Shown: positions 2,318 through 18,450 of the stretch, one piece after another
Layout of the letters: each line of letters begins with the position of its first letter
How positions within the stretch are numbered: the stretch's first letter is position 1
IMG/VR virus record: IMGVR_UViG_2713896798_000012
Reading direction: 5' to 3' (one strand)
Length of the DNA: 37,210 nt
Origin: a virus
Lineage: Duplodnaviria > Heunggongvirae > Uroviricota > Caudoviricetes
The notes under the pieces: generated by a model
What the model was told of the DNA's origin: nothing
What the model saw: only the letters and a program-made list of their open reading frames with translations
Database searches by the model: none
Translations under genes and position numbers: made by a program

Positions 2318-2414
2318 AATTTCTTTCCGTTATTGTTGACAATAAGAACTGTTTTCATTAAAAACCAGAGTACGAAAGTATCGTTCCTTTATTTTTTCTC
2401 CATAGGTATCACCA

Positions 2415-2450
2415 CCGCCAGCGTCCATTCCTGTCGCTGGCGGTTTTTTT
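2415..2450 (+). terminator. Intrinsic terminator oriented on the plus strand (antisense to the late operon)
   Basis: CCGCCAGCG…CGCTGGCGG 9-bp stem followed by T7 on the plus strand; on the minus strand the stem has an A-run upstream and no T-run. Confidence 0.45.
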
Positions 2451-2451
2451 A

Positions 2452-4389
2452 TCATGCCGCAGTGTCTGTGCTGTTCACTTCCACCGCAATGCTGTCTATC
2501 AGTACCGGGTAAGTCGCACCTCTGGTAATGTCTGTCACATGCAGTTTATCCGCCGCAAAGGCACTGACCGGTGACTGCGTCAGCGTGAACGGTGTGCCAT
2601 CCTGACCATCAATAACCGGCGTCACCTGCAGGCTGTTATTCCCGGCAAAGCGGAAAGCCAGCGTATGCCATTCGTTATCAAATGCGCCAAAGGTTCCCAG
2701 TTTCAGGTTGTTTGTCGCCACTTTCGCATTGTGGTACATCACATTCAGGTCTTTTGCATCTGTCTGGATGTAGAACGCTGCCAGCAGGTTATTCCCCCCG
2801 TCTCCGGTCAGGGCAACGCCCTGTGGCAGTGAAGATACCGGCCAGTAAAACGCCATAACATACTGGTTCGCAGCCAGCGCTCCCGAAACCTTAAAGCGGC
2901 AGCGAATCTGCCCCCCTTTCTGTAACAGAGCCGCACCGTTGCCCGCGGCGTACTCCAGCACCCAGCTGCTTTTACCGGCTTCCTTGGTCAGCTTCACTGC
3001 CTTACCTCCGGTTCCCTCCGCATCGCTGACCACTTCTGCCCTGCCGCCACTGGCTGACCATCCCTGTACTTTCAGGCTTCCCTCTGACTCGCTGGCAAGG
3101 TAAGAGAGCAGTGTTGTGACGCCTGTGGCTTCTGCACCGGAAGGCGATGACGGGCGCACCTCTGATACTGTCGATGATGCCCCCGCGTTTAGCGCCACTC
3201 TTCCCGCATGGCGCAAAATCGCCGTTGCCAGACGGTCGGAAATAATCCCGCGGCGAGCCCATGAACTGAAATGGCTCGCCCTGTCCTGTGACGTCCAGGT
3301 GGCTGAGCTGTCACGCCATTTCGAACCGTAATATCCGATACCCGGAATGTCCGGGTCTTCTTCCGGTTTGTTCGTCGGCACATTCACCCCGTTCTCATCC
3401 GTCATGAACGGTACGAAATGGATATTCTTTTCCGTTTTGTTTTTATAGCTGCCATACACCGTCTGGTACGTGGATTCGTTCTTCTGCTTCCAGAAATACG
3501 TCGTGTCCCCGCATATCCAGGGAACACCGCCAGCAGAGCCACCGACGCACTGGCCTGCCATATCCGCCAGGTCTGCACGGAATTTATCAACCAGCGCACC
3601 AAACTGTGCGGCGTGATTTACCGGCGTACCGCCAAAATCAAATTCCCCCTGCATCCACACCACGGCAAACAGCACATTTTTCGGATTCTTCTTCAGTGCT
3701 GCTTTTGTTCGACCGATAAGGTCCTTATACAGCGGCTTGTCCACACCCCAGCGGGTTGAATTCTCCGAGGCACCACTCGCGTCACTGTATGTGCCATCGG
3801 CTCCGGTGGTGAACGCTGAACCACCACGACAGCACGGAACCAGCAGAATGCCCGCATTCGCCGGTATAAACGGCAGCAGTTTTTTGGCGATATGCAGCCC
3901 CTGCCCCACGGTTCCGTACTGCCCCTTTGACAGGTCCGCTTTCGGATGGTTAAGACGGCTCATGTCCTGCACATCATGCAGACAATGGTCCGCCGGAATG
4001 ATGTCGTTATATTTGCATACTGCACCGCCCGGTGTCACCGTACTGCGACGCGCTAACTGTTTAATACGTGGATCAGGGCTGTCGAATGTATCCGGCAATG
4101 GCAGTCCCTCACCGTATGACATACCATTGGACTGACCAGCAAGCGCGATCACATAGTAATATTCTGGCGCAACAGAAGGCGCTGAGGTCGTCGGACGGTT
4201 GCCTGGCTCCTCTGGTGATGAGATGCTCCCCTCACTCACAACTGGCTGGATGAACTCCGCACCATAACCAGCTGTCGAAATCAGCGCACTACCATAAGGC
4301 TGCCACCCTTCCTTCAGTTTTTGAGTTATTCGTTTCGCAAGGTCTGACGGCGACGCCGCCCTGACAACATCATAGTGTTTAAATGCCAT
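2452..4389 (-). CDS. nanS-p: Prophage sialate O-acetylesterase (NanS-p type)
   Basis: 645 aa, the size and position (between tRNAs and holin) of NanS-p esterases of Stx-type prophages; GGGAGGA RBS before ATG. Recognised from memory. Confidence 0.75.
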   Translation of the reverse strand: MAFKHYDVVRAASPSDLAKRITQKLKEGWQPYGSALISTAGYGAEFIQPVVSEGSISSPEEPGNRPTTSAPSVAPEYYYVIALAGQSNGMSYGEGLPLPDTFDSPDPRIKQLARRSTVTPGGAVCKYNDIIPADHCLHDVQDMSRLNHPKADLSKGQYGTVGQGLHIAKKLLPFIPANAGILLVPCCRGGSAFTTGADGTYSDASGASENSTRWGVDKPLYKDLIGRTKAALKKNPKNVLFAVVWMQGEFDFGGTPVNHAAQFGALVDKFRADLADMAGQCVGGSAGGVPWICGDTTYFWKQKNESTYQTVYGSYKNKTEKNIHFVPFMTDENGVNVPTNKPEEDPDIPGIGYYGSKWRDSSATWTSQDRASHFSSWARRGIISDRLATAILRHAGRVALNAGASSTVSEVRPSSPSGAEATGVTTLLSYLASESEGSLKVQGWSASGGRAEVVSDAEGTGGKAVKLTKEAGKSSWVLEYAAGNGAALLQKGGQIRCRFKVSGALAANQYVMAFYWPVSSLPQGVALTGDGGNNLLAAFYIQTDAKDLNVMYHNAKVATNNLKLGTFGAFDNEWHTLAFRFAGNNSLQVTPVIDGQDGTPFTLTQSPVSAFAADKLHVTDITRGATYPVLIDSIAVEVNSTDTAA

Positions 4390-4919
4390 GAATCCTCCCG
4401 GCCGGGATAATATTGTGAGTAAAATAAGGAGCGGGCTGAAGTCCGGAAGTTACAGGACAATGGCAGAAGGGAGACTACAGCCCGCAATTCGAAAAAGGTC
4501 GCGCAGTTGCGCAGAGTGATTACTATAGGGTATTATTCGCCAGCTGAAATATTACTTCACGTTTCATTGTTTATTCCTTGCCGCCCGCGTCTCCCAGCGC
4601 GGGCTTTTTTGTCCATAAGAAAGCCCCTCCGGAGAGGGGCTGGAGAGTGGCGCTATGTGCCATTGCATGGTGCCGGGTGCCTCCCGGTGAGTTCAGCCCG
4701 GTGCCACTAAACCCTCGTCATTCTCGTTTTGATAATCAGAGATTATACCGTCACCAGTCGCCCCTCCGCTCAGGGGGATTCACCATGCAAAACTTTTTTA
4801 ACAACTCTCCGTCAACCAGACAATCATCAACTGCCTGAATTGTGAGGCATTTAACATTTCACTGTCCAGTGTCTTTCCTGTAATAAAAAGCCCGCAAAAG
4901 CGAGCCTGGTAAATAAATA

Positions 4920-4996
4920 TGGCGCGTTGTACTGGATTCGAACCAGTGACCGATTGCTTAGAAGGCAATTGCTCTGTCCGGCTGAGCTAACAACGC
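4920..4996 (-). tRNA. argO: tRNA-Arg (anticodon UCU)
   Basis: Hand-folded 77-nt cloverleaf: acceptor GCGTTGT/ACAACGC, anticodon loop CTTCTAA, TTCGAAT T-loop, CCA end. Confidence 0.8.
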
Positions 4997-5009
4997 AGTG
5001 TGCAGATAA

Positions 5010-5086
5010 TGGACCGCCATCGAGGACTCGAACCCCGCGCAACCAGCTTCGAAGGCTGACGCTCTATCCCGATGAGCTAATGGCGG
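5010..5086 (-). tRNA. argN: tRNA-Arg (anticodon UCG)
   Basis: Hand-folded cloverleaf: acceptor CCGCCAT/ATGGCGG, anticodon loop CTTCGAA, CCA end; 5' end could be 1 nt off. Confidence 0.7.
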
Positions 5087-5093
5087 TATGTGA

Positions 5094-5169
5094 TGGTGGC
5101 CCTTGCTGGATTTGAACCAGCGACCTGGCGATTATGAGTCGCTCGCTCTCACCACTGAGCTAAAGGGCC
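5094..5169 (-). tRNA. ileZ: tRNA with CAU anticodon (Ile2/Met type)
   Basis: 76-nt cloverleaf: acceptor GGCCCTT/AAGGGCC, anticodon loop CTCATAA, T-loop TTCAAAT, CCA; first of an ileZ-argN-argO-like trio downstream of Q. Confidence 0.8.
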
Positions 5170-5330
5170 GGGCGCAGGATAATAACGGTACGTAACTAAT
5201 TCTGCAATATCATCCGTTCTGACTGACTACATTCTGAACTTCCCTGACCGTCTGCTCAAAACGCCCGCTCTCCAGCTCAACGCCAATTGCACGACGCCCT
5301 AGCGCCATTGCTGCTTTGACGCTACGGACA

Positions 5331-5360
5331 TAAAAAAGCCAGCCACTGGGGGAGGCTGGC
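5331..5360 (-). terminator. Intrinsic terminator between Q and the tRNA cluster (tR'-like)
   Basis: Minus strand GCCAGCC-loop-GGCTGGC 7-bp stem followed by T6. Confidence 0.6.
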
Positions 5361-5537
5361 AAACTCGTAGAGCAAAATGCTGTTACGCAAACTTCGTTAC
5401 AGGGTTATCCTGCAATACTTAAAATATACAATATTTAGAAAACTAATAGTGCTATATGCGATTTTTAAGATTTTGTTATTAATTACGGTCGCACCTTCCT
5501 TTCTGTGTACTTTCCGTATAGCTCACAGGATTCGGGG

Positions 5538-5562
5538 TACAAAAAAACCCGCGCATCGGCGG
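5538..5562 (-). terminator. Intrinsic terminator just downstream of Q
   Basis: Minus strand CCCGC-loop-GCGGG followed by T7. Confidence 0.55.
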
Positions 5563-5610
5563 GTTCGACTGCGTGGCAATGTAACCACTCTTATCATGAT
5601 ATGCAGATTT

Positions 5611-6045
5611 TTACGATCGTAAACTATTTTTTCGCTGATAAAATACAGAGGTTCTCCCTCCCGGCAATTCACGCTCAACATACCGATCCATCTCAAGCCT
5701 CACTCCCAGCATCATCAGCATGCCTTCAACAATCCCCTCCGCTTTGTGAAGGCGTTTACCTATACAGGTGTCAGAGCACCCATGTTTCCGTGCCAACGCC
5801 ATGAACGTCTCCCCCAACACGTAATAATCAACCAGCAAGTCATGCAGATCGCGATTGTTCCGGTAAAGGCGGGCTATGCACCCGCATATCACCATCGCAT
5901 CATCGTCACAGCACTGTGGACGTGATTTTACTTTTTCGGGGATCAGTCCCTTAAATCCGGCAGCAATGGGCGACCATGTAACATCCTCATAGTTATTTGC
6001 CGCCCATGCCCCCCAGCGCTCAAGAACCTGCCGGATATCACGCAT
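5611..6045 (-). CDS. Q: Late-gene antiterminator Q (Stx-phage/82-type)
   Basis: Start taken at [18 protein letters not shown]… (144 aa), matching my recollection of the 933W-type Q N-terminus; overlaps ninH stop by 8 nt. Confidence 0.75.
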
Positions 6046-6232
6046 CAGTATCTTTACCCCATCCGCGGTGAACCATAAGAACACCGTTGACGATAGCGTG
6101 TCTTTTCCCTTCTTTATCGCCAGTGTATTTTCTGACCGTGTTGCGACTACAGTTCAGTATTCTGGCTACCTCGGTCTGATTTTCATATGCCTCAACGAGC
6201 ATGTCAGGAATGGTTTTTACTGTGAACGTCAT
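6038..6232 (-). CDS. ninH: NinH
   Basis: 64 aa [14 protein letters not shown]…[18 protein letters not shown]…, near-identical to lambda NinH as I recall it. Confidence 0.8.
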
Positions 6233-6834
6233 GCGGCCTCACTTCTGCTGTTTCGCAGGTCTTTAAGTTTCTGCTGATACTTCGCCTTGATCGCCCTGCA
6301 TTCTTCGACAGTCCAGCGATGGCGGTTATGGTTTGATTCGATTTCGTCTACTGCTTCCTGCCCGATGCGGTTAATCAGTTCGACGCGATACGGAACGAGA
6401 TTTCCGCTTTTATGTTGGTTGCACACCACGCATTGCTTGTGAATATTGCGTTCATCAAATCGGAGTTGAGGCGCAGCAGCAGTTGTCCGGTAATGCCCGG
6501 CATCCCACTGAGCAGACGTGAGCGTTCCGCACGAGATACATGGTAAGTCGCGGTCTCTTTCTCTGATGAAGGCGTTTACGGCTTGTTGGGCTTGTTTAAT
6601 CCAGTAACTGCGGGGCTTTAAGGCGAGTTTTCGAATCTTAAGTTTATCTTTCTGTTTCTGCTCCTCTCGTCGTCGTTTCTTCTCTGCTGCCTTTTCCGCT
6701 TTTTCGCGTTCTTTGCTTCGTCGTTCGAGTGCTAATTGAGTTCCGTGTTCCGGGCTGCACCACCACTGATTTGAGAATGCCGGGTGAAACCATTCCTTAC
6801 AGATTTTGCATTTCCTTCGCGCTGGTTTAGCCAT
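6229..6834 (-). CDS. ninG: NinG (Rap) recombination-associated endonuclease
   Basis: 201 aa, close to lambda NinG (MAKPARR…WWCSPE…CVVCNQHK…). Confidence 0.9.
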
Positions 6835-7888: not shown

Positions 7889-8053
7889 GTTGGCCTTTCT
7901 CTTTGCCTGACGAACTGCGTGGTGGTTTTTCACAAACCAGTCAGGGTCGTTAAATGCTGCTCTGGCGCAGGTATACCAATAATTTGTTGCCTCCCTGTTT
8001 AGCCAATAAATACTGATAAATGGGTAAGCGTCAACGGAGCACCGTATTGACGC

Positions 8054-9667
8054 TTATTTATTGGTGAGTACTACGTTCCATGGCAGGAGTTCGTCAACTC
8101 GGTTGGAAGGCCATTCCGGCAGTACGCTCAGGATATGGCGCAGATACGCTTCCGGATCGATACCGTTCAGACGGCAGGTGCCGATCAGCCCGTACAACAG
8201 TGCTCCACGCTCGCCGCCGTGATCGCTGCCAAAGAACATAAAGTTTTTCTTTCCGAGACAGACTGCACGAAGCGCTCTTTCCGCAGCATTATTATCCGCC
8301 TCCGCCAGACCGTCATCACTGTAATAACAGAGGGCATCCCACTGATTCAGTACATAGCTGAACGCTTCGCCCAGTCTGGATTTTTTCGACAGCGTACCAT
8401 TCTTCTCCACCATCCATTCATGCAGCGACGTCAGTAACACTTTGCTTCGCTGCTGCCTGACGGCAAGACGCTCTGACTCCGGTAATCCCCGTATTTCATC
8501 CTCGATGGCGTACAGTTCACTGATTCGCTTCAGGGCTTCTTCTGCCGTCGCACTTTTGCTGCTGATGTATACATCGTGGATTTTTCGCCGGGCATGGGCC
8601 CAGCACGCAACTTCTGTCAGTGCACCACCTTCACGTTCTGCACTGAACAACCTGTCGTAACCTGTGAACGCATCCGCCTGCAGGATACCCCGGAAGGGGC
8701 GGAGGTGTTGCTCCGGGTGTTTCCCCTGCCGGTTCGGCGAGTACGCGAACCAGACCGCTGGAGGAGATGACGAACCCACATTGCGATCATCCCGGACATA
8801 CGTCCAGATACGCCCTGTTTTCGCCTTTTTCTGACCCGGTGCCAGTACCTTTACCGGTGTGTCATCAGTGTGAACCTTGCGGGTGTTCATTACATAACGG
8901 TACAGGGCATCATTCACCGGTGTCATTAACTGGCAGCACGCGTCAACCCAGTTGGAGAGTAAGGCCCGGCTCAGTTCGACACCCTGGCGGGCAAAGATTT
9001 CACTCTGACGATACAGTGGCAGATGTTCGCAGTATTTTCCCGTTAACACGCGGGCAAGTAATCCGGGGCCCGCGATACCACGCTCTATCGGGCGGGACGG
9101 CGCCGGTGCTTCAACAATACAGTCACATTTTGTACAGGCTTTTTTTACCCGTTCTGTGCGGATCACTTTCAGGGCACTGCTCACCAGTTCCAGCTGTTCA
9201 GCGCTGACTTCCCCCAGATAATCCAGCTCACCGCCACACTCCGGGCAACAGCTTTCTTCTGGCTCCAGGCGGTGTATTTCACGGGGAAGGTGTGCCGGTA
9301 ACGGACGACGATGGCGCGACTGTCGCAACTGGCGGGGAACCTGAGGATCGTCTTCCCGCCCACTGTAACGATCGCTGTCCTGTTCACGTTGTTTCAGCAG
9401 AGCCTCAGCCAGTTCAACTTCACGACGCAGTTTTTCAGAACGGGTACCGAACAGCATCCGGCGCAGTTTTTCTATCTGAGCCCGCAGATGTTCTATTTCC
9501 CGTTCATCTTCTTCGATCTTTTCTTCGGCACGTGTCAGTGCAGAGCGCAGGAAGGCTTCCGTCTCTTCAACCAGACTCAGTTGCTGGTCTTTCTGACGGA
9601 GGGCTTCAGCCTGCTCAGAGAGCAACCTTTCCAGCTCTGCGATGCGAATGAGGTATTTCTGACTCAT
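8054..9667 (-). CDS. tnpC: IS66-family transposase TnpC
   Basis: 537 aa with N-terminal coiled coil and CxxC zinc motifs typical of IS66 TnpC. Confidence 0.9.
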   Translation of the reverse strand: MSQKYLIRIAELERLLSEQAEALRQKDQQLSLVEETEAFLRSALTRAEEKIEEDEREIEHLRAQIEKLRRMLFGTRSEKLRREVELAEALLKQREQDSDRYSGREDDPQVPRQLRQSRHRRPLPAHLPREIHRLEPEESCCPECGGELDYLGEVSAEQLELVSSALKVIRTERVKKACTKCDCIVEAPAPSRPIERGIAGPGLLARVLTGKYCEHLPLYRQSEIFARQGVELSRALLSNWVDACCQLMTPVNDALYRYVMNTRKVHTDDTPVKVLAPGQKKAKTGRIWTYVRDDRNVGSSSPPAVWFAYSPNRQGKHPEQHLRPFRGILQADAFTGYDRLFSAEREGGALTEVACWAHARRKIHDVYISSKSATAEEALKRISELYAIEDEIRGLPESERLAVRQQRSKVLLTSLHEWMVEKNGTLSKKSRLGEAFSYVLNQWDALCYYSDDGLAEADNNAAERALRAVCLGKKNFMFFGSDHGGERGALLYGLIGTCRLNGIDPEAYLRHILSVLPEWPSNRVDELLPWNVVLTNK

Positions 9668-9697
9668 GACCGTTTTTATAATGCGGTCAGGAGTTTT

Positions 9698-10048
9698 TTA
9701 CAACATTGTCAGTGAGTTACGGCTGGATGTTTTTGGCTGACGCCAGTCCAGCTTATCGAGGAGCATTGCCAGTTGCGAGCGGGTAATGGATACCTTGCCG
9801 TCACGTACCGCAGGCCAGATAAACTGGCCTTCCTCCAGGCGTTTGGTGAACAGGCACAGACCATCAGCATCAGCCCAAAGAATTTTGACGGTGTCACCCC
9901 GTCGGCCACGGAAGATAAACAGGTGACCGGAGAAGGGATTATCATTCAGCACATGTTGTACCTGTTCTCCCAGTCCGTTGAAGGATTTACGCATATCGGT
10001 AACGCCGGCAACGAGCCAGATACGGGTACCTGATGGGAGTGAGATCAT
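9698..10048 (-). CDS. tnpB: IS66-family accessory protein TnpB
   Basis: 116 aa, IS66 Orf2-like (…LVAGVTDMRKSFNGL…). Confidence 0.85.
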   Translation of the reverse strand: MISLPSGTRIWLVAGVTDMRKSFNGLGEQVQHVLNDNPFSGHLFIFRGRRGDTVKILWADADGLCLFTKRLEEGQFIWPAVRDGKVSITRSQLAMLLDKLDWRQPKTSSRNSLTML

Positions 10049-10470
10049 CTTCCCCTCCCGGTCAGTTCACGGATCAACACTGTGAGCAGCTCTGGCGATG
10101 GATTTTCCAGCGTCATGTTACCGTGACGGAATTCCACCTTGCAGGAACTGGCACTGACTCTGGTCTGAGTGGAAGTGGATAAAGACGGCGCAATGGCCGC
10201 CACAGGTTCTTTCTGCTCATCCGGCGTTATTTCTACAGGTAATAATTCAACGCCAGTGTCAGAAGAGGTCGTTACCGGAAGACGCCGCGAAACACGCCCT
10301 TCGTTCTGCCAGAGCCTGAGCCATTTGAAAATAACATTATCATTGACGCCATTTTCACGTGCAATCTGTGCAACACAAGCTCCAGGTTGTGATGCCAGTT
10401 CCACCATACGAAGTTTGAATTCATTCGAATAGTTTTTACGAGGTTCTTTTCGCCAGTCCTGTAATTCCAT
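10045..10470 (-). CDS. tnpA: IS66-family accessory protein TnpA
   Basis: 141 aa, HTH-like N-terminus; overlaps tnpB start. Confidence 0.8.
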   Translation of the reverse strand: MELQDWRKEPRKNYSNEFKLRMVELASQPGACVAQIARENGVNDNVIFKWLRLWQNEGRVSRRLPVTTSSDTGVELLPVEITPDEQKEPVAAIAPSLSTSTQTRVSASSCKVEFRHGNMTLENPSPELLTVLIRELTGRGR

Positions 10471-10555
10471 ACTTAGATGTCCGTCTATATCAGATGGGCG
10501 TCTAAGTTACCAATTCTCGTCTGATGGCTACATACGGCGGTCAGTTTACGCTTAC

Positions 10556-10888
10556 GTACTCCTGACGACAGAAGTTATTAAATTCCTTCTCCGACTGTTT
10601 AAGCTCCGCATTCTCTGCCGCCAGCACCGAAAACTTCTCGTGTGCCAACTTAACAGCCGCATCAGCCTGCTTAATTGACTCAATCGCTTTCTGTTGGTCT
10701 TCGGCCAGCTCCGCTAAATTAGCCTCCAGTTCGGCTATGCGTTCGTTTAATGCATCTCGTTCATCCAGTAGCGCCAGCACAACCTGAGGTGTGACTTTCA
10801 TACGAAATGCCAGCAATTTTTGAGGCGTTGCTACTGTTTCAATTGCTACTGCCGCCTCACGCAGTGCCTGATAGTCAATTTTGCTCAC
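10556..10888 (-). pseudogene. 5' portion of an Ea22/Ead-like gene truncated by IS copy A
   Basis: Track ORF 10541-10888 runs 15 nt into the IS terminal repeat (…FCRQEY|VSVN*); N-terminus MSKIDYQ.LRE matches the paralog at 30985. Confidence 0.75.
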
Positions 10889-11085
10889 TGGTTGCCTCCT
10901 TTGCGCAACATCGCATTCAGATATTTGTTGTCATTAACAGAACCGAAACTCTTTCTCTTAAGCAATTCCTCTCTCGAGGGCATTGGCTTTACGCGTTGGC
11001 GAATAATCATTTCTGCCGGAAGAATGCCGGGATTGTATGCAAGTCCTCTCATGGTAAATTCCTCAGTCATTACTGATAGCGCCAT
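10885..11085 (-). CDS. Hypothetical small protein (C-terminus …RKGGNQ)
   Basis: 66-aa ATG ORF; its stop overlaps the next start as in the ea22-like tandem genes. Confidence 0.4.
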
Positions 11086-11359
11086 AGCGTGAGCGGTAAT
11101 TACGCAGGCGCGGGTCGATATATTCAGGGAATTTGTCTATTGTCGCTTTTCGCAACGGTCTCATTGCTGTTTCGTTTGTTCGGTCCTTCTCCTGTTTTAG
11201 CGCGAGTTGTATATCGCGTCGGTACATCCGTTCTGCTTTTGTTTCTGGTGTCAGAGCAAGAAACGCGTCGAAATTGTTTTTGATATTTTCCAGCACCTCC
11301 GCCTTGGAGCTACCGGAGCAGTTGCGCGGGTCATCCGCACCATACAGAGGCGCTGGCAT
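11063..11359 (-). CDS. Hypothetical protein
   Basis: 98-aa ORF in the early-left operon orientation. Confidence 0.4.
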
Positions 11360-11382
11360 AATGGGAGCCTTATTTTCAGTAA

Positions 11383-11970
11383 TCAGAAAGGAGGGTAATC
11401 GTTCTGGCTGTAACCATAATCATCTGCATGATTATGGCTTACGTTTTTAGAGCGATTGTCTTTATCTTTGAGGCTGGCAACCATGTTGGCGATAGTTTCT
11501 GGTTGCTTGCCTTCTGCCTTTTCTTTAAGGGTTTGACCTGTTTGTGCAATAAACGGGATGCGTATTTCCATCTGGTAGCTGTCTGCGCCAGTCTTTTTGT
11601 TTGTGGTTAATACTTTCTGGAGCACTAACCCGATTTTCTTTCCATGAAATTCAGGTGCAACAAATTTACTGGCGGAAACCATATGTTGCGTTAATTGTCC
11701 AATCCCGGCACACCCCATCATGGCGTGAACGACATTTGCGCCAAATTTGTTTTCCGTGCCGTCATTTTTCTGAACACAGACGCTAAGATACTGGATTTTA
11801 CGTCCGTCGTCGGATTCTCCAGAAAACTCAATAAATTTGGCTCCTTTTTCTGATTGCTTGAGTTCTGCTTCAGTAATGGTAATTATGTGAGCGCCAGTTT
11901 CGTTAATAAAACCACCTTGCCCTGCGGTCAGTGCTGCTTCTTCGTTATAAGTAAAAATTACGTTGCTCAT
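11383..11970 (-). CDS. Hypothetical phage protein (195 aa), possible partner of the adjacent ATPase
   Basis: ORF with upstream RBS-like sequence; no family confidently recognised. Confidence 0.5.
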   Translation of the reverse strand: MSNVIFTYNEEAALTAGQGGFINETGAHIITITEAELKQSEKGAKFIEFSGESDDGRKIQYLSVCVQKNDGTENKFGANVVHAMMGCAGIGQLTQHMVSASKFVAPEFHGKKIGLVLQKVLTTNKKTGADSYQMEIRIPFIAQTGQTLKEKAEGKQPETIANMVASLKDKDNRSKNVSHNHADDYGYSQNDYPPF

Positions 11971-11974
11971 GCTT

Positions 11975-12595
11975 TTATCCTTTTGATAAGGCCTTGTCTA
12001 CAGACCAATGATATGTGTAAATCCTGCTTCTTACCGTGCTTGGGTTTAATCCAGTTTTTTCGCAGTGCTCTGAAATTGTTGCCAGCACTCCATTGAATTT
12101 AAATAATACGGTATTACTCTTATTTCTTGCTTGCTCGATACTTTTCTGCCATTCGCAATTTGATGGTTCGTAATTACCATTGTTATCAATTCTTCCCAAT
12201 GTAGTTCCGTCAGGTCTTTTTCCCATATCAGCGAAAAATAATTTAAAGTTCAGCCACCGTTCACAAACAGTTATTCCTCTTCCTCCATAGTGTTTGTATT
12301 TACTATTTCTTTCATTGAAGCATCTTGTTAACATTGAAGACCATGACTTGTATGTTGGTGTTCCATACATGCCATGTTTGTTTTTTCTTGCTTTTGTTGT
12401 AGATGAGCGTGAGCAACCACAACTTCTTGTGTGCCCTGAACGGAGGTTGCCAAGCTGTTTAACACAAACTACTCCGCAGTCACACACACAGTTTACCAAC
12501 CTTTGAGTACCACGCATTCCTGCATCACCAATAACAACTAAATTGCCAAATCTCTCGCCGGATACCTCAAGACGTCTCATTTTTTTCAAACCCAT
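11975..12595 (-). CDS. Cys-rich putative DNA-binding/nuclease-like protein
   Basis: 206 aa; CxCDCGVVC…CGCS zinc-ribbon-like cluster and a YKSWSSMLTRC…YGGRGITVCERW motif I associate with phage DNA-binding or HNH-like proteins. Confidence 0.45.
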   Translation of the reverse strand: MGLKKMRRLEVSGERFGNLVVIGDAGMRGTQRLVNCVCDCGVVCVKQLGNLRSGHTRSCGCSRSSTTKARKNKHGMYGTPTYKSWSSMLTRCFNERNSKYKHYGGRGITVCERWLNFKLFFADMGKRPDGTTLGRIDNNGNYEPSNCEWQKSIEQARNKSNTVLFKFNGVLATISEHCEKTGLNPSTVRSRIYTYHWSVDKALSKG

Positions 12596-13223
12596 AGTAA
12601 GAGCATATTTTTTTATCTACTTCGTACAAATCATTATCAATAAACTGACTATCAAACATCCCAACCGGACTTTTACAACAATCACTCCCGTTTGTCTGGG
12701 TGGAAAATGAGTATTTTCCGTTCTGTACGTGAGTTCTTAACACGATAGTGAAATAACCTTCAGGAACAAGTGTCGAATCGACTAGTTTTCCGACGGTTTT
12801 CATTCGTGTATAGCCAAAATCATCAGTTTGCGTGTGTGCCAGAATATAAACTCTCCGAGTGTCTGCACCTTCACCAGCAGCCCTGAACACATCCCATGCG
12901 TTTTTCCCTATCGAGGTAAATTTGTCATATCCTCTCTCATTGCATTTACCCATTAGTTCGTTAACCATCACAGCCTGATAATCATCAATAACTACAATTT
13001 CATGCGGAGCATTAATTAGTGCCCTTACAATATTTTCAGTATTATCTGTTCTGTATATGTTCCCGTTATTGTTTTCCTTGCTTATTTTAACCCAATCACT
13101 TGATGGGAATGGTAGCGGTTTGTTTATGCACTGTATGATTAATGTTTTTTCTGGTGGTAAGTTTCTTAAACTGGTTGATTTTCCGGTGCCAGACTCACCG
13201 AGTATTAATGTCGCAGTACCCAT
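12567..13223 (-). CDS. P-loop NTPase (phage Sak4-like ATPase?)
   Basis: Walker A ILGESGTGKST and Walker B-like EIVVIDDYQ; 218 aa; occupies the recombination-module position of the pL operon. Confidence 0.6.
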   Translation of the reverse strand: MGTATLILGESGTGKSTSLRNLPPEKTLIIQCINKPLPFPSSDWVKISKENNNGNIYRTDNTENIVRALINAPHEIVVIDDYQAVMVNELMGKCNERGYDKFTSIGKNAWDVFRAAGEGADTRRVYILAHTQTDDFGYTRMKTVGKLVDSTLVPEGYFTIVLRTHVQNGKYSFSTQTNGSDCCKSPVGMFDSQFIDNDLYEVDKKICSYYGFEKNETS

Positions 13224-13231
13224 AATTCACC

Positions 13232-13432
13232 TCAGAATGGTAATTCGGATGGGGAGGAAAGAAATTCGCGCTCATTCATGCGCTCTCTTTGTGCCTGCCA
13301 TAAGCAAAGTTGTTTCTTTGATTTATCTCCCGCTTTACGCCAGTAACGAGCCTCAGCAATGTGATACTCTCTTTTTAATCGACTTAACTCTGGGGTTTTC
13401 GCCAGTTCTACCGGAATCATTTTGACCTCCAT
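13232..13432 (-). CDS. Hypothetical small protein
   Basis: 66-aa ORF between kil and the ATPase gene. Confidence 0.35.
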   Translation of the reverse strand: MEVKMIPVELAKTPELSRLKREYHIAEARYWRKAGDKSKKQLCLWQAQRERMNEREFLSSPSELPF

Positions 13433-13530
13433 TTTCTGTAGGCTTCTACGGCTTCACGAAACATCTTTTCATCGCCAATAAAAGTGGCGATAGTGAATTT
13501 AGTCTGGATAGCCATAAGTGTTTTATCCAT
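13417..13530 (-). CDS. kil: Kil (host-killing/division inhibition peptide)
   Basis: Internal ATG giving MDKTLMAIQTKFTIATFIGDEKMFREAV…, matching lambda Kil N-terminus; overlaps cIII stop by 8 nt. Confidence 0.7.
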   Translation of the reverse strand: MDKTLMAIQTKFTIATFIGDEKMFREAVEAYRKWRSK

Positions 13531-13663
13531 TTTTTGGAACTCCTGGCTGATTAAGTATGTCGATAAGGCGTTTCCATCCGTCACGTAATTTACGGGTGAT
13601 TCGCTCAAGTAAAGATTCGGAAGGGCAGCCAGCAACAGGCCACCCTGCAATGGCATATTGCAT
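13523..13663 (-). CDS. cIII: CIII (FtsH inhibitor)
   Basis: 46 aa MQYAIAGWPVAGCPSESLLERITRKLRDGWKRLIDILNQPGVPKNG, essentially lambda CIII; AAGGAG RBS. Confidence 0.85.
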   Translation of the reverse strand: MQYAIAGWPVAGCPSESLLERITRKLRDGWKRLIDILNQPGVPKNG

Positions 13664-13721
13664 GGTGTGCTCCTTATTTATACATAACGAAAAACGCCTC
13701 GAGTGAAGCGTTATTGGTATG

Positions 13722-13750
13722 CATATAAAAAGGCCCTCACACTGGAGGGC
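13722..13750 (-). terminator. Intrinsic terminator downstream of the 156-aa moron gene
   Basis: Minus strand GCCCTC-loop-GAGGGC followed by CTTTTTAT. Confidence 0.6.
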
Positions 13751-13854
13751 AAAGAAGATTTCCAATAATCAGAACAAGTCGGCTCCTGTTTAGTTACGAG
13801 CGACATTGCTCCGTGTATTCACTCGCTGGAATGAATACACAGTGCTTATTTGTA

Positions 13855-14325
13855 CTAATAAAATACCCAATTTTCTGTTTCTTGGTTGTGTCCAAAGTTA
13901 TATTCAATATCTGGTGTTGATGTATCAATATTCTTCATCCCATCAACAAGAGTTGATACAACAGCCAAATCTTGTTTGATTCTCATTAAATGGTATTTCT
14001 TCCGGCGCAATAAACTTTCAATGGCAAGTTTCTTCGTTGGGAATGCAAAAGATCTTTCTGCATTTTTTGCTACTTTCTTAATTGCATATCTATTTCTCCT
14101 TTGTTTCCATTCCTGTAACCACTGATTTGGTGCTGGTTTAAAATTAACAATCCAATGCGCAGGAACCAACCATGCATAATGCTCTGTCTGATGAAAAGCT
14201 ATATATTGAAGTGCGTATATTTTGATCCCATCTTCTTCAACTGTCGCCTGGAATCTCCAGAAAACAGGCATTCCATCATGTTCAGTTTCTGATTCAGGAA
14301 AAGGTACGCTCCATGATTTTGTCAT
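13855..14325 (-). CDS. Hypothetical protein (AT-rich insert between N and cIII)
   Basis: 156 aa; strong GAGGTGA RBS; visibly AT-rich; followed by a 9-bp-arm hairpin and terminator. Confidence 0.6.
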   Translation of the reverse strand: MTKSWSVPFPESETEHDGMPVFWRFQATVEEDGIKIYALQYIAFHQTEHYAWLVPAHWIVNFKPAPNQWLQEWKQRRNRYAIKKVAKNAERSFAFPTKKLAIESLLRRKKYHLMRIKQDLAVVSTLVDGMKNIDTSTPDIEYNFGHNQETENWVFY

Positions 14326-14383
14326 ATCTCACCTCAAATAAGTGGTTTGCTGCCTAATTTCATTTTCTGGCGACCAACACAAG

Positions 14384-14767
14384 TCATCTTGCTGTCAGTT
14401 GTTTTGATTTCCGGTAGCCTGCCGCGTAAAGAGCTACGTTTGGAAGACATACACCAGTTTCTGGTTGCTTATGTCCAAACTCATTCGCGTACACAATGGC
14501 CGCTCGCTCCAGATTGCGTCTGTATTCTTTCTGTTGCCAGATCACGTCCTGTGCCATGAACTTAATTGGCTTAGCGTCTTCTATGCGCTCAGGCGTTTCG
14601 TGAGTACCTTTAGCCTGAATCTGCGCTCTGCTTAGAGTAGGGCGGTGTAATACTTCTGAACTTATTGCTTCTTCGCGGGCCAGCACGCCGTTAGCTAATG
14701 CCTTTGCCTTTAAACGCTCACGACGACGAGAACGTGAATTGCCTTTGAACTGAGTTCTGCGTGTCAT
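14384..14767 (-). CDS. N: Antiterminator N (Stx-phage/H-19B-type)
   Basis: 127 aa with arginine-rich motif RRTQFKGNSRSRRRERLKAKA; AGGAGG RBS; lies immediately downstream of the pL/nutL region. Confidence 0.8.
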   Translation of the reverse strand: MTRRTQFKGNSRSRRRERLKAKALANGVLAREEAISSEVLHRPTLSRAQIQAKGTHETPERIEDAKPIKFMAQDVIWQQKEYRRNLERAAIVYANEFGHKQPETGVCLPNVALYAAGYRKSKQLTAR

Positions 14768-14932
14768 ATAGACCTCCTGATGAACTTTGGTGGTGTGGTA
14801 GGTGGGAGACCCATTTCGACCTGTTTCGGCCTACTTCAATTCGGCAATAGTCCCGCAGGCCTCGCCGCTTTACGTGCGACATATTCCCGTCCATGAACCC
14901 TTCACCACACCCCAAAGTTCACTTTGGTTATT

Positions 14933-14947
14933 GCGCTTTGTCAGCGC
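14933..14947 (-). promoter_or_regulatory. Candidate nutL boxB hairpin
   Basis: Minus strand GCGCU-GACAA-AGCGC (5-bp stem, 5-nt loop), same architecture as lambda boxB; no convincing boxA found. Confidence 0.4.
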
Positions 14948-15019
14948 CGTAGATTCATATTCGAATCGTTGTATATTCACCGCCATGGTGAGTAGTGCGT
15001 CCTGCTGATGGGTGAACTT

Positions 15020-15070
15020 TATCGGAATGATAAATTAATGGCAATAGCAAAATGATAAATTCTCTTGGTT
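15020..15070 (-). promoter_or_regulatory. Putative oL/pL operator-promoter region
   Basis: Two copies of ATGATAAAT 25 bp apart (15027, 15052); the same motif recurs in the cI-cro intergenic region. Confidence 0.5.
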
Positions 15071-15240
15071 TTCAAAAATCGTATTGATTCTTATGGTGTT
15101 TTATTTTGTTGTAGGAATTCGACAGGATAAATAAAGAGATTTGAGGGAGATCTGGATTGCGTTGTTTAGCAAGTTGTATCTATCAATTTTTCAATAAATA
15201 CAATTGGTTATGTTTTTTAGGTGTGGGGATCGCGAGGCAA

Positions 15241-15264
15241 AGAAAACCCGGCGCTGAGGCCGGG
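15241..15264 (-). terminator. Intrinsic terminator after the rex-position cassette
   Basis: CCCGGC-GCTGAG-GCCGGG palindrome followed by TTTTCT on the minus strand, directly after the 250-aa ORF stop. Confidence 0.55.
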
Positions 15265-15269
15265 TTGTA

Positions 15270-16022
15270 TTATGCTGCAAGTCTCTTAACCCAAGTCTCT
15301 CTTTTGGAGAATGGTAGAACTTGGCTTGATTCATGGAAGAGTAAGGAGAGTTGTTGCATTTGATCACCAATTGCTTCGCTGTCTATAACAACAAATCTGT
15401 TGTTATACTCCTCACTTGAAGCTTTAAGATCAATTAGTTTCCCAAGCAATGAGTAAGCACTATTCCAGCTTCCTCCGTGTTTCACGCTTGATGTAAAAAC
15501 GTATTTAGGTATGTCGGTTTTTATTGTTACAGGGACGGTAATTTGATGTCCACTCAAGCCATATACGTTTTCACGAAGAGAAAGTGCGTCTCTAAGCTCT
15601 GTGTGATATAGATAATCAATAACCATACTTTCAAACTTTTCAGCTTGAACTGGCTGATACCAGTCTAACGACAAAGTTGATGCGAGTATACCAGCTCTAA
15701 TTATGTTCGATGTAATCGCACCTACATCCTTTTCTGTTGCCCAAGCAATGATTTCTCCTCGAGCATTGAGTTCTGCGCCTTCTTTAAGCAGTAATTGTCG
15801 TATCTCATCAAGTCGTTTTTTGGTAAGCGAGATCCCTCTTGCCTCCATATTCATTAAGGCATCGCATCTGTCACTAACTAAATACCTACCATTGACTTCA
15901 CGGATAAAGGCACCGACATGCTCTCCATCATCACAGTAAGTGAATGGACTGATAATTCTCAAGGTCTTGCCTATTGGATGGCATTCGAAACCTAGTTGTG
16001 AGATCACTGTTGAGCACATCAT
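15270..16022 (-). CDS. Unknown protein B of the rex-position cassette (250 aa)
   Basis: ATG overlaps upstream stop (ATGA); no recognisable motif, no obvious TM segments. Confidence 0.6.
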   Translation of the reverse strand: MMCSTVISQLGFECHPIGKTLRIISPFTYCDDGEHVGAFIREVNGRYLVSDRCDALMNMEARGISLTKKRLDEIRQLLLKEGAELNARGEIIAWATEKDVGAITSNIIRAGILASTLSLDWYQPVQAEKFESMVIDYLYHTELRDALSLRENVYGLSGHQITVPVTIKTDIPKYVFTSSVKHGGSWNSAYSLLGKLIDLKASSEEYNNRFVVIDSEAIGDQMQQLSLLFHESSQVLPFSKRETWVKRLAA

Positions 16023-16576
16023 ATTCCAAACCCCATTTGCCCCGACTCATCTTCAAGCGGTAAAGGTATTCTCCCAGAGTAAGTTATGTTCAGATGTTTA
16101 CAGAAGTAATTCCAATACCCTACCAGGTCATCTGGGTTTATGTCATCTTCGATTGGAAACGCTATTCTATCACTATAGTATCCAGCTTCTTCATAGTATA
16201 CATGGTAGTGAGCACCGTAAATGATATCTTGGTACTTCGGATGATCGACCTTGTAACTATTCGTGTGTTTGTCAAAGTGATAGGTATCTACCGCGAAAAC
16301 CCTCTTGTTATGATAGAAAGCAATAATATTTATTTTAGGGTAAGAAATCGGGTCATCAGGTTCTGAATCCTGATCTGGTTTCCATTTCAGTTCAAACTTT
16401 AGCCCTTGTATAGGTATACAATCCTCATCCAAGGGGATGATATGAGCTTGTAGCCACATATCAGAGCGACTTGGTTTCTGTTTCCATTTAACGCCAGAAA
16501 AGTTAACTATTTTTTTACAATAAAGTACTTTATCAACTTCTACTTGGCTTGGCTGATAATCATCTATTTTTGCCAA
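16019..16576 (-). CDS. Unknown protein A of the rex-position cassette (185 aa)
   Basis: TTG start per ORF track, 90 bp downstream of cI on the same strand; aromatic- and acidic-rich; no recognisable family. Confidence 0.55.
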   Translation of the reverse strand: MAKIDDYQPSQVEVDKVLYCKKIVNFSGVKWKQKPSRSDMWLQAHIIPLDEDCIPIQGLKFELKWKPDQDSEPDDPISYPKINIIAFYHNKRVFAVDTYHFDKHTNSYKVDHPKYQDIIYGAHYHVYYEEAGYYSDRIAFPIEDDINPDDLVGYWNYFCKHLNITYSGRIPLPLEDESGQMGFGI

Positions 16577-16666
16577 TGTTTACCGCCCTGTAAATTGTAG
16601 ATAAAAGTGGTTTCATCACCCAAACGTCTCTTCTGGCCACTGGCTATCAGCTATGTGACGATGAAG

Positions 16667-17371
16667 TCACGAACTTTTCAGCCACTCCCTTGCCTCGATG
16701 TCATCCAGATGGCGAGATTGCTTCAGAATACCAGCCACATACTCCACCTTTGCTACTTGATGATAAGGCAACGTTATAGGCCTGTGATCCTGGTTAATGC
16801 TTGTAAATTGGTATTCTCCATCTCTGTCATAGCCAAGAACCTTAATCATGTTGTGTCCTTCAACGGTTCTGACAAACACCTCATCACCCGGGAATACTTT
16901 GGTGTTAGGCTCAATGAGTACATATTCTCCTGATTTTATTCTGGGCCACATGCTGTCTCCTTTCACACGAAGACCAAAGGCATCTGGATCATCGCTATAA
17001 ATTTTGAGCCACCCATCGCGCTCTTCGGTCATCTCGATGGCACCATCAACACCAAGAATTGCCTCACCAACCACGCGCACTAACCCTTTTCTTACCTGAC
17101 CGACAAAAGTTAAAGAATCTGAGCATGATGCAATTGGTGTTACATCATGTACCAAATCAAGCCACCCATTAGGTAACCCAAGCGCGGCTTCAAATTTTCT
17201 TGCTAGTTTATCCCCTATGTTTCGAGTGCTTTTTTCACCGGAGACTTGCGTGAGTTGAGAAGGGCTAACCCCAAGCTTATCGGCAAAGCTTGCATTAGTG
17301 TTACCCGCGATTTTTTTATGCTCATCTAGCAAAAACGCCAGATTCGATTTGCGAATATCTTTGTTTTCCAT
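16667..17371 (-). CDS. cI: CI-type prophage repressor (HTH plus S24 LexA-like peptidase domain)
   Basis: 234 aa; N-terminal HTH; C-terminal autocleavage domain with GDSMWP Ser motif; divergent from cro. Confidence 0.85.
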   Translation of the reverse strand: MENKDIRKSNLAFLLDEHKKIAGNTNASFADKLGVSPSQLTQVSGEKSTRNIGDKLARKFEAALGLPNGWLDLVHDVTPIASCSDSLTFVGQVRKGLVRVVGEAILGVDGAIEMTEERDGWLKIYSDDPDAFGLRVKGDSMWPRIKSGEYVLIEPNTKVFPGDEVFVRTVEGHNMIKVLGYDRDGEYQFTSINQDHRPITLPYHQVAKVEYVAGILKQSRHLDDIEAREWLKSS

Positions 17372-17484
17372 CTCACAATTTTCCCTCTATTTAGCAAATG
17401 GATAAATACGCAATATGATAAATTTACATTGCGGTTGATTTATCAAAATGGTAAAGTTATTCTGTGTGATAAACGGAGGCACTA
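17372..17484. promoter_or_regulatory. Putative oR operator region with divergent pRM/pR
   Basis: Several TGATAAA(T) half-sites in both orientations (about 17400, 17415, 17437, 17467) between cI and cro. Confidence 0.5.
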
Positions 17485-17718
17485 ATGAGTAATGAACTAC
17501 TACGCTGGCGAAAAGAGGCTTCTAGTGAGGAATGGAAGCGACTCGCCGCATTAGCGAAAACTTCAGTTGGCTATCTTGACCAGATTGCATATGGATTTCG
17601 AAGAGCTTCCCCTGATAAAGCGAATGCAATCGAAGAAGCTACTCGTAATTTCACGGGTTATAAACCTGTGAAAAAGGAAAACCTAGTGTTCGTATCGCGT
17701 AGAGCATCGGCTGCATAA
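17485..17718 (+). CDS. cro: Cro-like small regulator
   Basis: 77 aa, first gene rightward of cI; GGAGG RBS; HTH-like segment. Confidence 0.6.
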   Translation: MSNELLRWRKEASSEEWKRLAALAKTSVGYLDQIAYGFRRASPDKANAIEEATRNFTGYKPVKKENLVFVSRRASAA

Positions 17719-17856
17719 GTAACACCGCTATTTTCACAATGGACATTCGTCCTACGTCGCTGACAAAGCGAGTCCCAATATATCTGACCAACTAAGGCTA
17801 CATGCGTTTCCACGCATACCTTTCAACTAACTATTCACTATTGGAAATCTTAAGAA

Positions 17857-18153
17857 ATGGAACAAACAAGTTACAGCAAACTATCCCAGCGTGACGTTGA
17901 TCGCGCAGAAACAGATTTACTCATCAACCTGTCAACGCTTACCCAGCGCGGTCTGGCAAAGATGATTGGCTGTCATGAATCGAAGATAAGCAGAACGGAC
18001 TGGAGGTTTATTGCTTCGGTCCTGTGTGCTTTCGGAATGGCATCAGACATCAGTCCGATTAGCAGGGCTTTTAAGTATGCGCTTGATGGACTCACCAATA
18101 AAAAACGCCCGGCGGCAACCGAGCGTTCTGAACAAATACAAATGGAATTTTAA
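17857..18153 (+). CDS. cII: CII transcriptional activator
   Basis: 98 aa; C-terminal half (…LTNKKRPAATERSEQIQMEF) essentially identical to lambda CII. Confidence 0.85.
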   Translation: MEQTSYSKLSQRDVDRAETDLLINLSTLTQRGLAKMIGCHESKISRTDWRFIASVLCAFGMASDISPISRAFKYALDGLTNKKRPAATERSEQIQMEF

Positions 18154-18175
18154 CAACATCCAGCGAGGTAATTAT

Positions 18176-18448
18176 ATGCGAAACAAAGGCTTTAATCCAC
18201 CTGATACACACAAAGAAGCTAAGCGTTTGCGCTTCCTTCGTTCCATTGATGAAAGAACTCAAATCTCTTTTGTGAAAGTTGCCAGAACTGAGCTTCTGAA
18301 GGCTGAGGCGAGGGCGTTGCTCCCGTCTCTACCAAAAGAGGAGGGATATACGTTCATTCCAAACGCATTTCTGGAAAAGCTGCTCAAAGAAGACATATCC
18401 GTAAGTCAGTTTAACGATGTTCTTAAGGTCTTTCGTCAAGGCAGGTAG
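18176..18448 (+). CDS. Hypothetical protein between cII and O
   Basis: Internal ATG with GAGGT RBS (MRNKGFNPPD…), 90 aa. Confidence 0.45.
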   Translation: MRNKGFNPPDTHKEAKRLRFLRSIDERTQISFVKVARTELLKAEARALLPSLPKEEGYTFIPNAFLEKLLKEDISVSQFNDVLKVFRQGR

Positions 18449-18450
18449 TT

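Follow-up and report, generated by a model that had tools for sequence, protein, structure and literature searches.

In the deposited record of the Shiga toxin (Stx) phage 933W, the late region runs in the order pR', qut, two terminators, pT, the tRNA genes ileZ/argN/argO, a terminator, the toxin genes stxA2/stxB2, a SASA esterase gene and the lysis genes S and R. It has been reported that RNase E cuts a 258-nt transcript at a GU/AUU site to give the 74-nt Hfq-binding small RNA (sRNA) StxS, an activator of rpoS and repressor of stx1B, that StxS genes occur in some non-toxigenic phages as well, and that stx1AB is "bookended" by EcOnc42 (Sy et al. 2020, PMC7547250). Convergent Hfq-binding sRNAs have been described at the moron site of the Sakai prophages Sp3, Sp4, Sp5, Sp9, Sp10, Sp11, Sp15 and Sp17; the same work sized EcOnc27 at 235/247 nt (the 247-nt form being Hfq-dependent) and EcOnc05, the STnc100 copy of the toxin-free Sp4, at ~222 nt, and detected an RNA of ~271 nt in Sakai with the EcOnc08/21/42 probe (Tree et al. 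2014, PMC4104026). STnc100 sits 75 nt after stx2B (PMC12370729) and is related to PasD1 and PasD2, sRNAs of enteropathogenic Escherichia coli (EPEC), in which sRNA genes flank the sialate esterase gene (bioRxiv 10.64898/2026.05.13.724894). Our study concerns a region of this kind, positions 4390-5610 and their surroundings in the IMG/VR virus record IMGVR_UViG_2713896798_000012, a stretch of 37,210 nt that we call the window and whose numbering is used throughout. An original prediction, made from the letters alone, had described this region as a Stx-phage-type late control region from which the toxin genes are missing.

Late control region and stx insertion site

We consider it likely, with a probability of roughly 85%, that the region is the late-gene control block of a 933W-type lambdoid prophage with a toxin-free allele of the stx insertion site. 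The genes that carry this finding all lie on the minus strand, in the order Q, pR' and terminators, ileZ-argN-argO, a 530-bp interval, nanS-p, holin and lysozyme, and each component named in the original prediction (Q, terminators, three tRNAs with the anticodons CAU, UCG and UCU, esterase, lysis genes) was recovered at its place and on that strand. The features are the following.

5611-6084, minus strand: late antiterminator Q, short, of the 933W (Q933) type (Pfam Phage_antitermQ, E = 1.4e-50)
5596-5623, minus strand: late promoter pR' (TTTACG-16-TATCAT), from the promoter scan; it maps onto the pR' annotated in 933W
5332-5589, minus strand: pR'-to-tR' short transcript, the 258-nt long form of StxS, by identity to Sp5/933W
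5178-5206, minus strand: predicted tRNA promoter pT (TTGCAG-17-TATTAT), read from the sequence and equivalent to the pT annotated in 933W
5169-5094, minus strand: tRNA with anticodon CAU, ileZ (ARAGORN; Rfam tRNA 72.5 bits; 0 mismatches to 933W)
5086-5010, minus strand: tRNA with anticodon UCG, argN (ARAGORN; Rfam tRNA 53.6 bits; 3 mismatches to 933W)
4996-4920, minus strand: tRNA with anticodon UCU, argO (ARAGORN; Rfam tRNA 70.1 bits; 1 mismatch to 933W)
4878-4907 (hairpin 4907-4888), minus strand: intrinsic terminator after argO, from the scan; in 933W it is the "terminator upstream of the stx genes"
4846-4884, no strand: empty stx slot holding a 39-bp filler, delimited by break points against 933W, phi345 and EC3283
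2452-4389, minus strand: nanS-p, sialate O-acetylesterase gene, 645 aa (Pfam DUF1737, SASA, DUF6645)
1746-1531, minus strand: holin S, P21-type/class II (Pfam Phage_holin_2_1; 100% aa identity to 933W)
1526-993, minus strand: lysozyme R (Pfam Phage_lysozyme; 96% aa identity to 933W)

The closest described relatives are 933W and Sakai Sp5, with which the window shares gene order and orientation. The Q proteins of 933W and the window are identical (157/157 aa), as are NanS-p and 933Wp42 (645/645 aa), the holins, the ileZ genes and, at the nucleotide level, StxS. Positions 7289-4885 align to 933W up to the terminator after argO with 97.2% identity, and positions 4845-1 align from 46 bp after stx2B onward with 94.7%, that is, about 97% upstream and 95% downstream of the slot. 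The succession of a short Q933-type antiterminator, pR', StxS and tR', followed by ileZ-argN-argO, nanS-p and then a class II holin and lysozyme, is that of the 933W-type (Sepvirinae) late scaffold. The window differs from 933W and Sp5 in that it has no stx2AB, in three substitutions in argN and one in argO, in the 5' and variable segments of its STnc100-type sRNA, and in having a module of the EcOnc08/21/42 type where AsxR is found in those phages.

The stretch between pR' and tR' matches Sakai Sp5 and 933W at 258/258 nt, and its identity with Sp15 is 94.6%. We infer a transcript start near 5589; a GUAUU (GU/AUU) motif lies at 5418-5414, and processed StxS is predicted to be the last ~74-80 nt of the long form. 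Transcript size and RNase E site agree with the published description (PMC7547250), and by its sequence, that is, the pR'-tR' identity and a GU/AUU site ~74 nt from the 3' end, the stretch qualifies as a putative StxS gene. The tR' hairpin at 5360-5338, with a 9-nt loop and a U-run after it, is annotated in 933W; it was seen by eye and was missed by our terminator scan. That scan covered 4200-6300 and called 8 terminator-like hairpins against 1.9 expected, including those at 5566-5545, 4907-4888, 4641-4622 and 4513-4500, the first of which falls within the long StxS transcript.

Searches of the whole window by blastn and tblastn with stx1AB and stx2AB as queries returned neither stx1 nor stx2. 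A Stx-converting phage carries stxA and stxB between the Q/tRNA block and the lysis genes; because these defining genes are absent, the prophage in the window is not a Stx phage. Alignments to 933W, to the Stx2a phage EC3283 (O145 type) and to phi345, a Belgian Stx2 phage, give identical break points: homology stops at 4885, just past the hairpin after argO, and picks up again at 4845. Between these points, Stx2 phages have 1341 bp, comprising the stx2 promoter, stx2A and stx2B, whereas the window has 39 bp. This filler is absent from Stx2 phages; with 1 mismatch, it recurs in a non-Stx prophage of the O157:H7 strain F1273, in which the flanks share no more than ~90% identity with the window, its 3' half (AAATGTTAAAT...) is found after stx1B as well, and Sakai prophage Sp4 is contiguous across the junction with 85.7% identity. 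Judging from these alignments, the filler is not a deletion scar. In Stx1 phages (H-19B type, Sakai Sp15, AP005153), which resemble the window in Q, StxS (94.6%), the downstream STnc100, EcOnc42 and nanS-p, homology resumes at 4859, 40 bp after stx1B, and the left break lies at 5323, just after tR', because these phages lack the tRNA block; there, stx1AB takes the place of a methylase remnant, pT, the tRNAs and the terminator (5322-4860 in the window).

The sequence after the break is thus homologous to that following both stx1B and stx2B; a lack of similarity to stx flanks, which the original prediction had named as telling against it, is therefore not what we observed. The comparison with stx-negative prophages likewise agreed with the proposed toxin-free relative of Stx phages, to which 933W aligns on both sides of its cassette: the same junction is present in Sp4, in the isolated phages phi296, phi315 and phi367, and in strain E2855. 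The 530-bp interval 4390-4919 is 100% identical in phi296, phi315, phi367, TL-2011a, PPwrbA_EH2201/EC3734 and E2855, all of which have the same toxin-free order; a literature search found nothing on TL-2011a or PPwrbA. Sp4 (ileZ1-argN1-argO1, EcOnc05, EcOnc08/21, esterase ECs_1088) matches the window in its tRNAs, STnc100-type sRNA, convergent module and esterase, and differs in having an AraC-family gene in place of Q upstream of the tRNAs and another STnc100 variable segment. With a 171-bp junction probe at a coverage of at least 80%, we identified the toxin-free junction in 491 of 5426 complete E. coli genomes, 30 records reaching at least 99%.

Small RNA genes between argO and nanS-p

The interval had been described as free of credible open reading frames (ORFs), which agrees with our results. 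It is non-coding but not empty, as it bears sRNA genes, and the stretch from Q to the tRNAs encodes StxS. The several hairpins noted in the original prediction belong to a full-length STnc100-family sRNA gene, to the terminator of this gene and to a convergent antisense sRNA unit, which that prediction had missed. The features are listed below.

4611-4845, minus strand: STnc100-family sRNA gene, relative of EcOnc27/EcOnc05/PasD (Rfam RF02076 match over 4816-4611)
4742-4747, minus strand: TATAAT hexamer within the variable internal segment of STnc100
4507-4610, plus strand: convergent antisense unit with a predicted ~69-nt sRNA at 4542-4610 (promoter architecture, terminator scan)
4418-4610, plus strand: longer antisense transcript of the EcOnc21/42 type, predicted (probe mapping, promoter-like site at 4383-4411)
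4500-4513, minus strand: small hairpin with a T-run in the nanS-p leader (terminator scan)

The RF02076 match scores 158.3 bits against a gathering score of 47 and covers the full model (1-206 of 206, E = 1.4e-37), the conserved core ACUCACCGGGAGGCACCCGGCACCAUGCA is present, the terminator hairpin lies at 4641-4622, and the fold has a z-score of -4.0 against shuffled controls. The copies in 933W, 75 nt after stx2B, and after stx1B score 208 and 177 bits, respectively, and the EcOnc27 northern probe maps inside the 933W copy. Like STnc100, EcOnc27, EcOnc05, EcOnc13, PasD1 and PasD2, to which it was compared, the gene in the window gives a full-length model match and stands after the moron site and before the esterase gene; its variable segment (~4755-4700) and 5' leader make it a distinct variant, closest to the copy of Stx1 phages. 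The sizes of the homologous RNAs in Sakai place its probable 5' end ~20-35 nt before the start of the Rfam match, near 4845-4832 and close to a conserved CACAAT. This hexamer is the -10 element of a promoter-like sequence on the minus strand, TGGACA-18-CACAAT (4868-4839), which was considered as a candidate STnc100 promoter; the -35 of this sequence, situated in the filler, is not shared by the Stx phages.

On the opposite strand, a promoter-like arrangement of TTGCGC (4507-4512), an 18-nt spacer and TATTAT (4531-4536), with 5 nt to the start, precedes the predicted 69-nt RNA, which has a fold z-score of -3.3 and a terminator hairpin at 4583-4604 followed by six U. The mapped 5' end of AsxR in 933W is preceded by the same architecture, TTGCGC-N18-TAAAAT-N5. 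The window thus shares with AsxR and AgvB (RF02703, RF02702; Tree et al. 2014) the slot, convergent with STnc100 and upstream of nanS-p, the TTGCGC-N18 promoter with a -10 of the TAAAAT/TATTAT type and N5, and a short RNA ending in a GC hairpin and U-run. The RNA body and terminator are unrelated, however, and the predicted length is 69 nt rather than 54-60 nt; we identified no Rfam match to AsxR or AgvB in 4380-4930, even at E <= 10, whereas the homologous slot of 933W gives AsxR at 88 bits, converging on STnc100. The 4500-4513 hairpin, which has the -35 (TTGCGC) of the antisense promoter on its complementary strand, hardly varies among the seven phages aligned, whatever antisense module is present.

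The module itself corresponds to EcOnc08/21/42. Tree et al. used the numbering of an earlier Sakai genome version (offset 0 at Sp4, +142 at Sp5), so the EcOnc peaks were placed by probe mapping instead of raw coordinates. The EcOnc08/21/42 probe maps to 4503-4537 with 30 of 35 positions matching (5 mismatches), the RNA being on the plus strand. The module aligns throughout with Sp4 and Sp15, is identical to that of EC3283, and is thus shared with EC3283, the Stx1 phages and Sp4; unannotated, it is present in 980 of the 5426 complete E. coli genomes (~18%). The Sp4 homologue of the 69-nt RNA (2506-2437 in our locus L010) coincides with the peak EcOnc08 (2439-2511) obtained for Hfq by crosslinking and analysis of cDNA (CRAC). 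Use of the GATAAT at 4406-4411 would place the start of the longer antisense RNA at ~4418, and a length of 271 nt would place it at ~4340; this RNA would cover part of the nanS-p leader and stop at the terminator of the short RNA. The slot therefore probably yields two RNAs with one terminator, a short sRNA in the AsxR position and a longer antisense RNA. The short RNA was doubted when the EcOnc08/21/42 probe was mapped over its promoter, and was taken up again in view of the AsxR architecture and the EcOnc08 CRAC peak; the published probe lies upstream of the predicted start, for which reason the 69-nt RNA would have escaped northern detection.

All these parts are of known kinds: a stx-negative 933W-like phage, of which identical sequences have been deposited, an Sp4-type allele, StxS, STnc100/EcOnc27/PasD and EcOnc08/21/42. 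It is conceivable, though rather unlikely, that the short 69-nt RNA predicted for the AsxR slot represents a third class of short Hfq-binding sRNA that uses the AsxR/AgvB promoter scaffold with an unrelated body; if this is true, the EcOnc08-type short RNA could act on another host target, as a sponge or a regulator. In the non-Stx prophage of F1273 (O157:H7, NZ_CP038376; ~3860-3920 in our locus L006), we observed AgvB at this slot, with an exact match to the EcOnc01 probe and the same toxin-free junction; the slot therefore cycles through at least three modules (AsxR, AgvB and the EcOnc08 type) independently of stx.

By analogy with the homologous phages 933W, Sp5, Sp15 and Sp4, five units would be transcribed from this region in a lysogen without Q. 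From pR', a 258-nt transcript ending at tR' would be processed to StxS, and pT would give the rare-codon tRNAs ileZ, argN and argO, ending at hairpin 4907-4888. A promoter of its own would drive the Hfq-type sRNA of the STnc100 family (~220-235 nt, ending at 4641-4611), and the opposite strand would give both the short ~69-nt sRNA in the AsxR slot and the longer antisense RNA, which would share the terminator at 4583-4610. Upon induction, polymerase modified by Q at pR' would pass the hairpin at 5566-5545, tR' (5360-5332), the terminators after argO and STnc100, and the hairpin at 4513-4500, so that it would reach nanS-p and the lysis genes after four or five terminators.

Exchange, deletion and other readings

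The original prediction had also offered the region as a site of cargo loss or gain, and the comparison with the stx2-positive phage phi345 speaks for this. There are zero differences over 6333-5060 and ~4499-1900, and all differences fall within 5059-4500: three in argN and one in argO, the missing cassette, the STnc100 leader and variable segment, and the antisense module. Against 933W, argN differs at 5066, 5059 and 5042, and argO at 4959, the base 3' of the anticodon, which is A in the window and G in 933W; in these alignments, the differences in argN and argO mark the left part of the putatively exchanged patch. Differences confined to 5059-4500 between identical flanks are the signature of a cassette exchange, and the tract looks like a discrete segment swapped by homologous recombination, as stx loss or as stx gain, and not like a deletion. 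A simple and recent deletion of stx2AB from a phage like 933W or phi345, which would make the interval a scar, could account for the complete identity with phi345 over more than 1 kb of either flank and for a Q, NanS-p and holin 100% identical to those of 933W. It is nevertheless quite improbable: the 39-bp slot sequence is missing from Stx2 phages and present in divergent non-Stx prophages, and the ~135 substitutions and indels that go with the absence of stx across 5059-4500, in argN/argO, the STnc100 variable segment and the antisense module, would not be made by a deletion.

Two further readings concern what the interval encodes. The TATAAT hexamer pointed out in the original prediction is present on the minus strand, but as a promoter this single, non-conserved hexamer is not supported. 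It would be a working internal promoter either for a shorter 3' sRNA or for nanS-p in the lysogen, and it does have a perfect -10 on the coding strand, while several size classes (80-240 nt) have been reported for RNAs of the STnc100/PasD type. We regard this as unlikely, given that there is no -35 or TG extension, that the promoter scan did not call it, that the Stx1 phage has TATGAT instead and 933W, phi345 and Sp4 lack the hexamer, and that a transcript from it would reach the terminator at 4641-4622 ~100 nt downstream. One such hexamer is also near chance for the interval (1 against ~0.26 expected on the two strands of 530 bp; 9 against 18 expected in the whole window). That the interval codes for small proteins is the most improbable reading. 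ORFs of 43-86 aa are present and annotators have called coding sequences (CDSs) there, as "hypothetical protein" in records (three in phi296) and as ORF b70 in the Stx1 phage; however, no interval ORF has a Pfam match, the Prokaryotic Genome Annotation Pipeline (PGAP) gives no CDS there in E2855, and the 158-bit structured-RNA match and the terminators account fully for the region. Moreover, homologues differ by the swapping of whole modules and by indels of 1, 2, 4 and 5 nt, and since these are not multiples of three, reading frames are broken. Separately, a 14-codon mini-ORF after the STnc100 terminator (ATG at ~4564, minus strand) with a good Shine-Dalgarno sequence was considered and rejected, its start codon being missing in Sp4 and Sp15.

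Several points weigh against the interpretation of the region as a functioning control block with a toxin-free allele. What the window itself provides are sequence identities and positions, and the transcription pattern is one that we infer from homologues. This applies to where the STnc100-type RNA and the two antisense RNAs would begin, as the northern sizes in Sakai (~222-247 nt and ~271 nt) do not pin start sites, and to the 69-nt RNA, which has CRAC support in Sakai and whose predicted start lies downstream of the published northern probe. Furthermore, the block comprising Q and the late genes is inverted relative to the O/P replication genes, which lie between two identical ISEc23 copies. 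Q may consequently lack supply from pR, in which case this prophage may have no Q-dependent read-through; as assembled, Q is uncoupled from the early operon, so the prophage may be unable to run the late programme. The Q-independent RNAs would be unaffected by the inversion.

The toxin cannot be presumed from the presence of a Q933-type late region, tRNAs and nanS-p, which bears on annotation and on the reading of risk. The empty site is a common, stable allele, exchangeable with stx-bearing alleles through 100% identical flanks, so that stx could plausibly be lost or re-acquired by recombination with prophages of this type. Relatives without the toxin keep StxS, STnc100 and the antisense unit; of these, a host effect (RpoS activation) has been shown for StxS.

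Inverted early region and further features of the window

Two 100%-identical copies of the IS66-family insertion sequence ISEc23 stand in inverted orientation at 8024-10558 and 28149-30683, 17.6 kb apart. Between them are a cI-like gene (16667-17371, minus strand), O (18451-19398, plus strand) and a DnaB-type helicase gene (19395-21788, plus strand), so that the immunity and replication genes face away from the block of roi, ninG, ninH, Q and the late genes (7556-1, minus strand). When 10559-28148 is flipped, the genes fall into the canonical lambdoid order, which suggests either an assembly isomer or an inversion that was mediated by the insertion sequences and uncouples Q from pR. The roi-ISEc23 arrangement was found in no complete E. 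coli genome of our collection, and phi315 has neither the ISEc23 copies nor the inverted early region of the window. A third IS66-family element (23212-25544, plus strand), unlike the ISEc23 pair, lies in the early region and encodes a 512-aa transposase and two small accessory ORFs. The helicase (797 aa) has an insert resembling a LAGLIDADG/homing endonuclease at residues ~393-454, between its N- and C-terminal domains, which suggests an intein.

Between tR' and pT, a further feature is kept in stx-positive and stx-negative relatives alike:

5210-5322, minus strand: C-terminal remnant of a DNA methyltransferase gene, a pseudogene, by homologue annotations

In E2855 and F1273, PGAP annotates the homologous stretch as a pseudogene, an incomplete methylase gene, while the records of phi315 and phi345 label it "DNA methyltransferase"; the corresponding ORF (5362-5210) has no Pfam match. 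Upstream of Q, Pfam identifies NinH and NinG and, elsewhere in the window, DUF1378, DUF826 and an Ant-type protein. Directly after the nanS-p stop and antisense to the gene, a weak Esr41-like Rfam match (2375-2452, plus strand) reaches 28 bits against a gathering score of 102, and 933W has an identical weak match at the same place. It may represent a terminator hairpin only, or else one more antisense RNA, by which nanS-p would be bracketed in the way that the EPEC esterase gene is flanked by PasA. The weak Rfam matches to snoZ13, anti-hemB, OmrA-B, Trp leader and Plastid-ycf2 (the latter over ileZ) were set aside as chance. At the right edge of the window, a P4-type integrase gene (Arm-DNA-bind_3 and Phage_integrase; 36041-37210, minus strand) is oriented otherwise than its canonical place with respect to the late genes would require, and it may belong to a neighbouring element.

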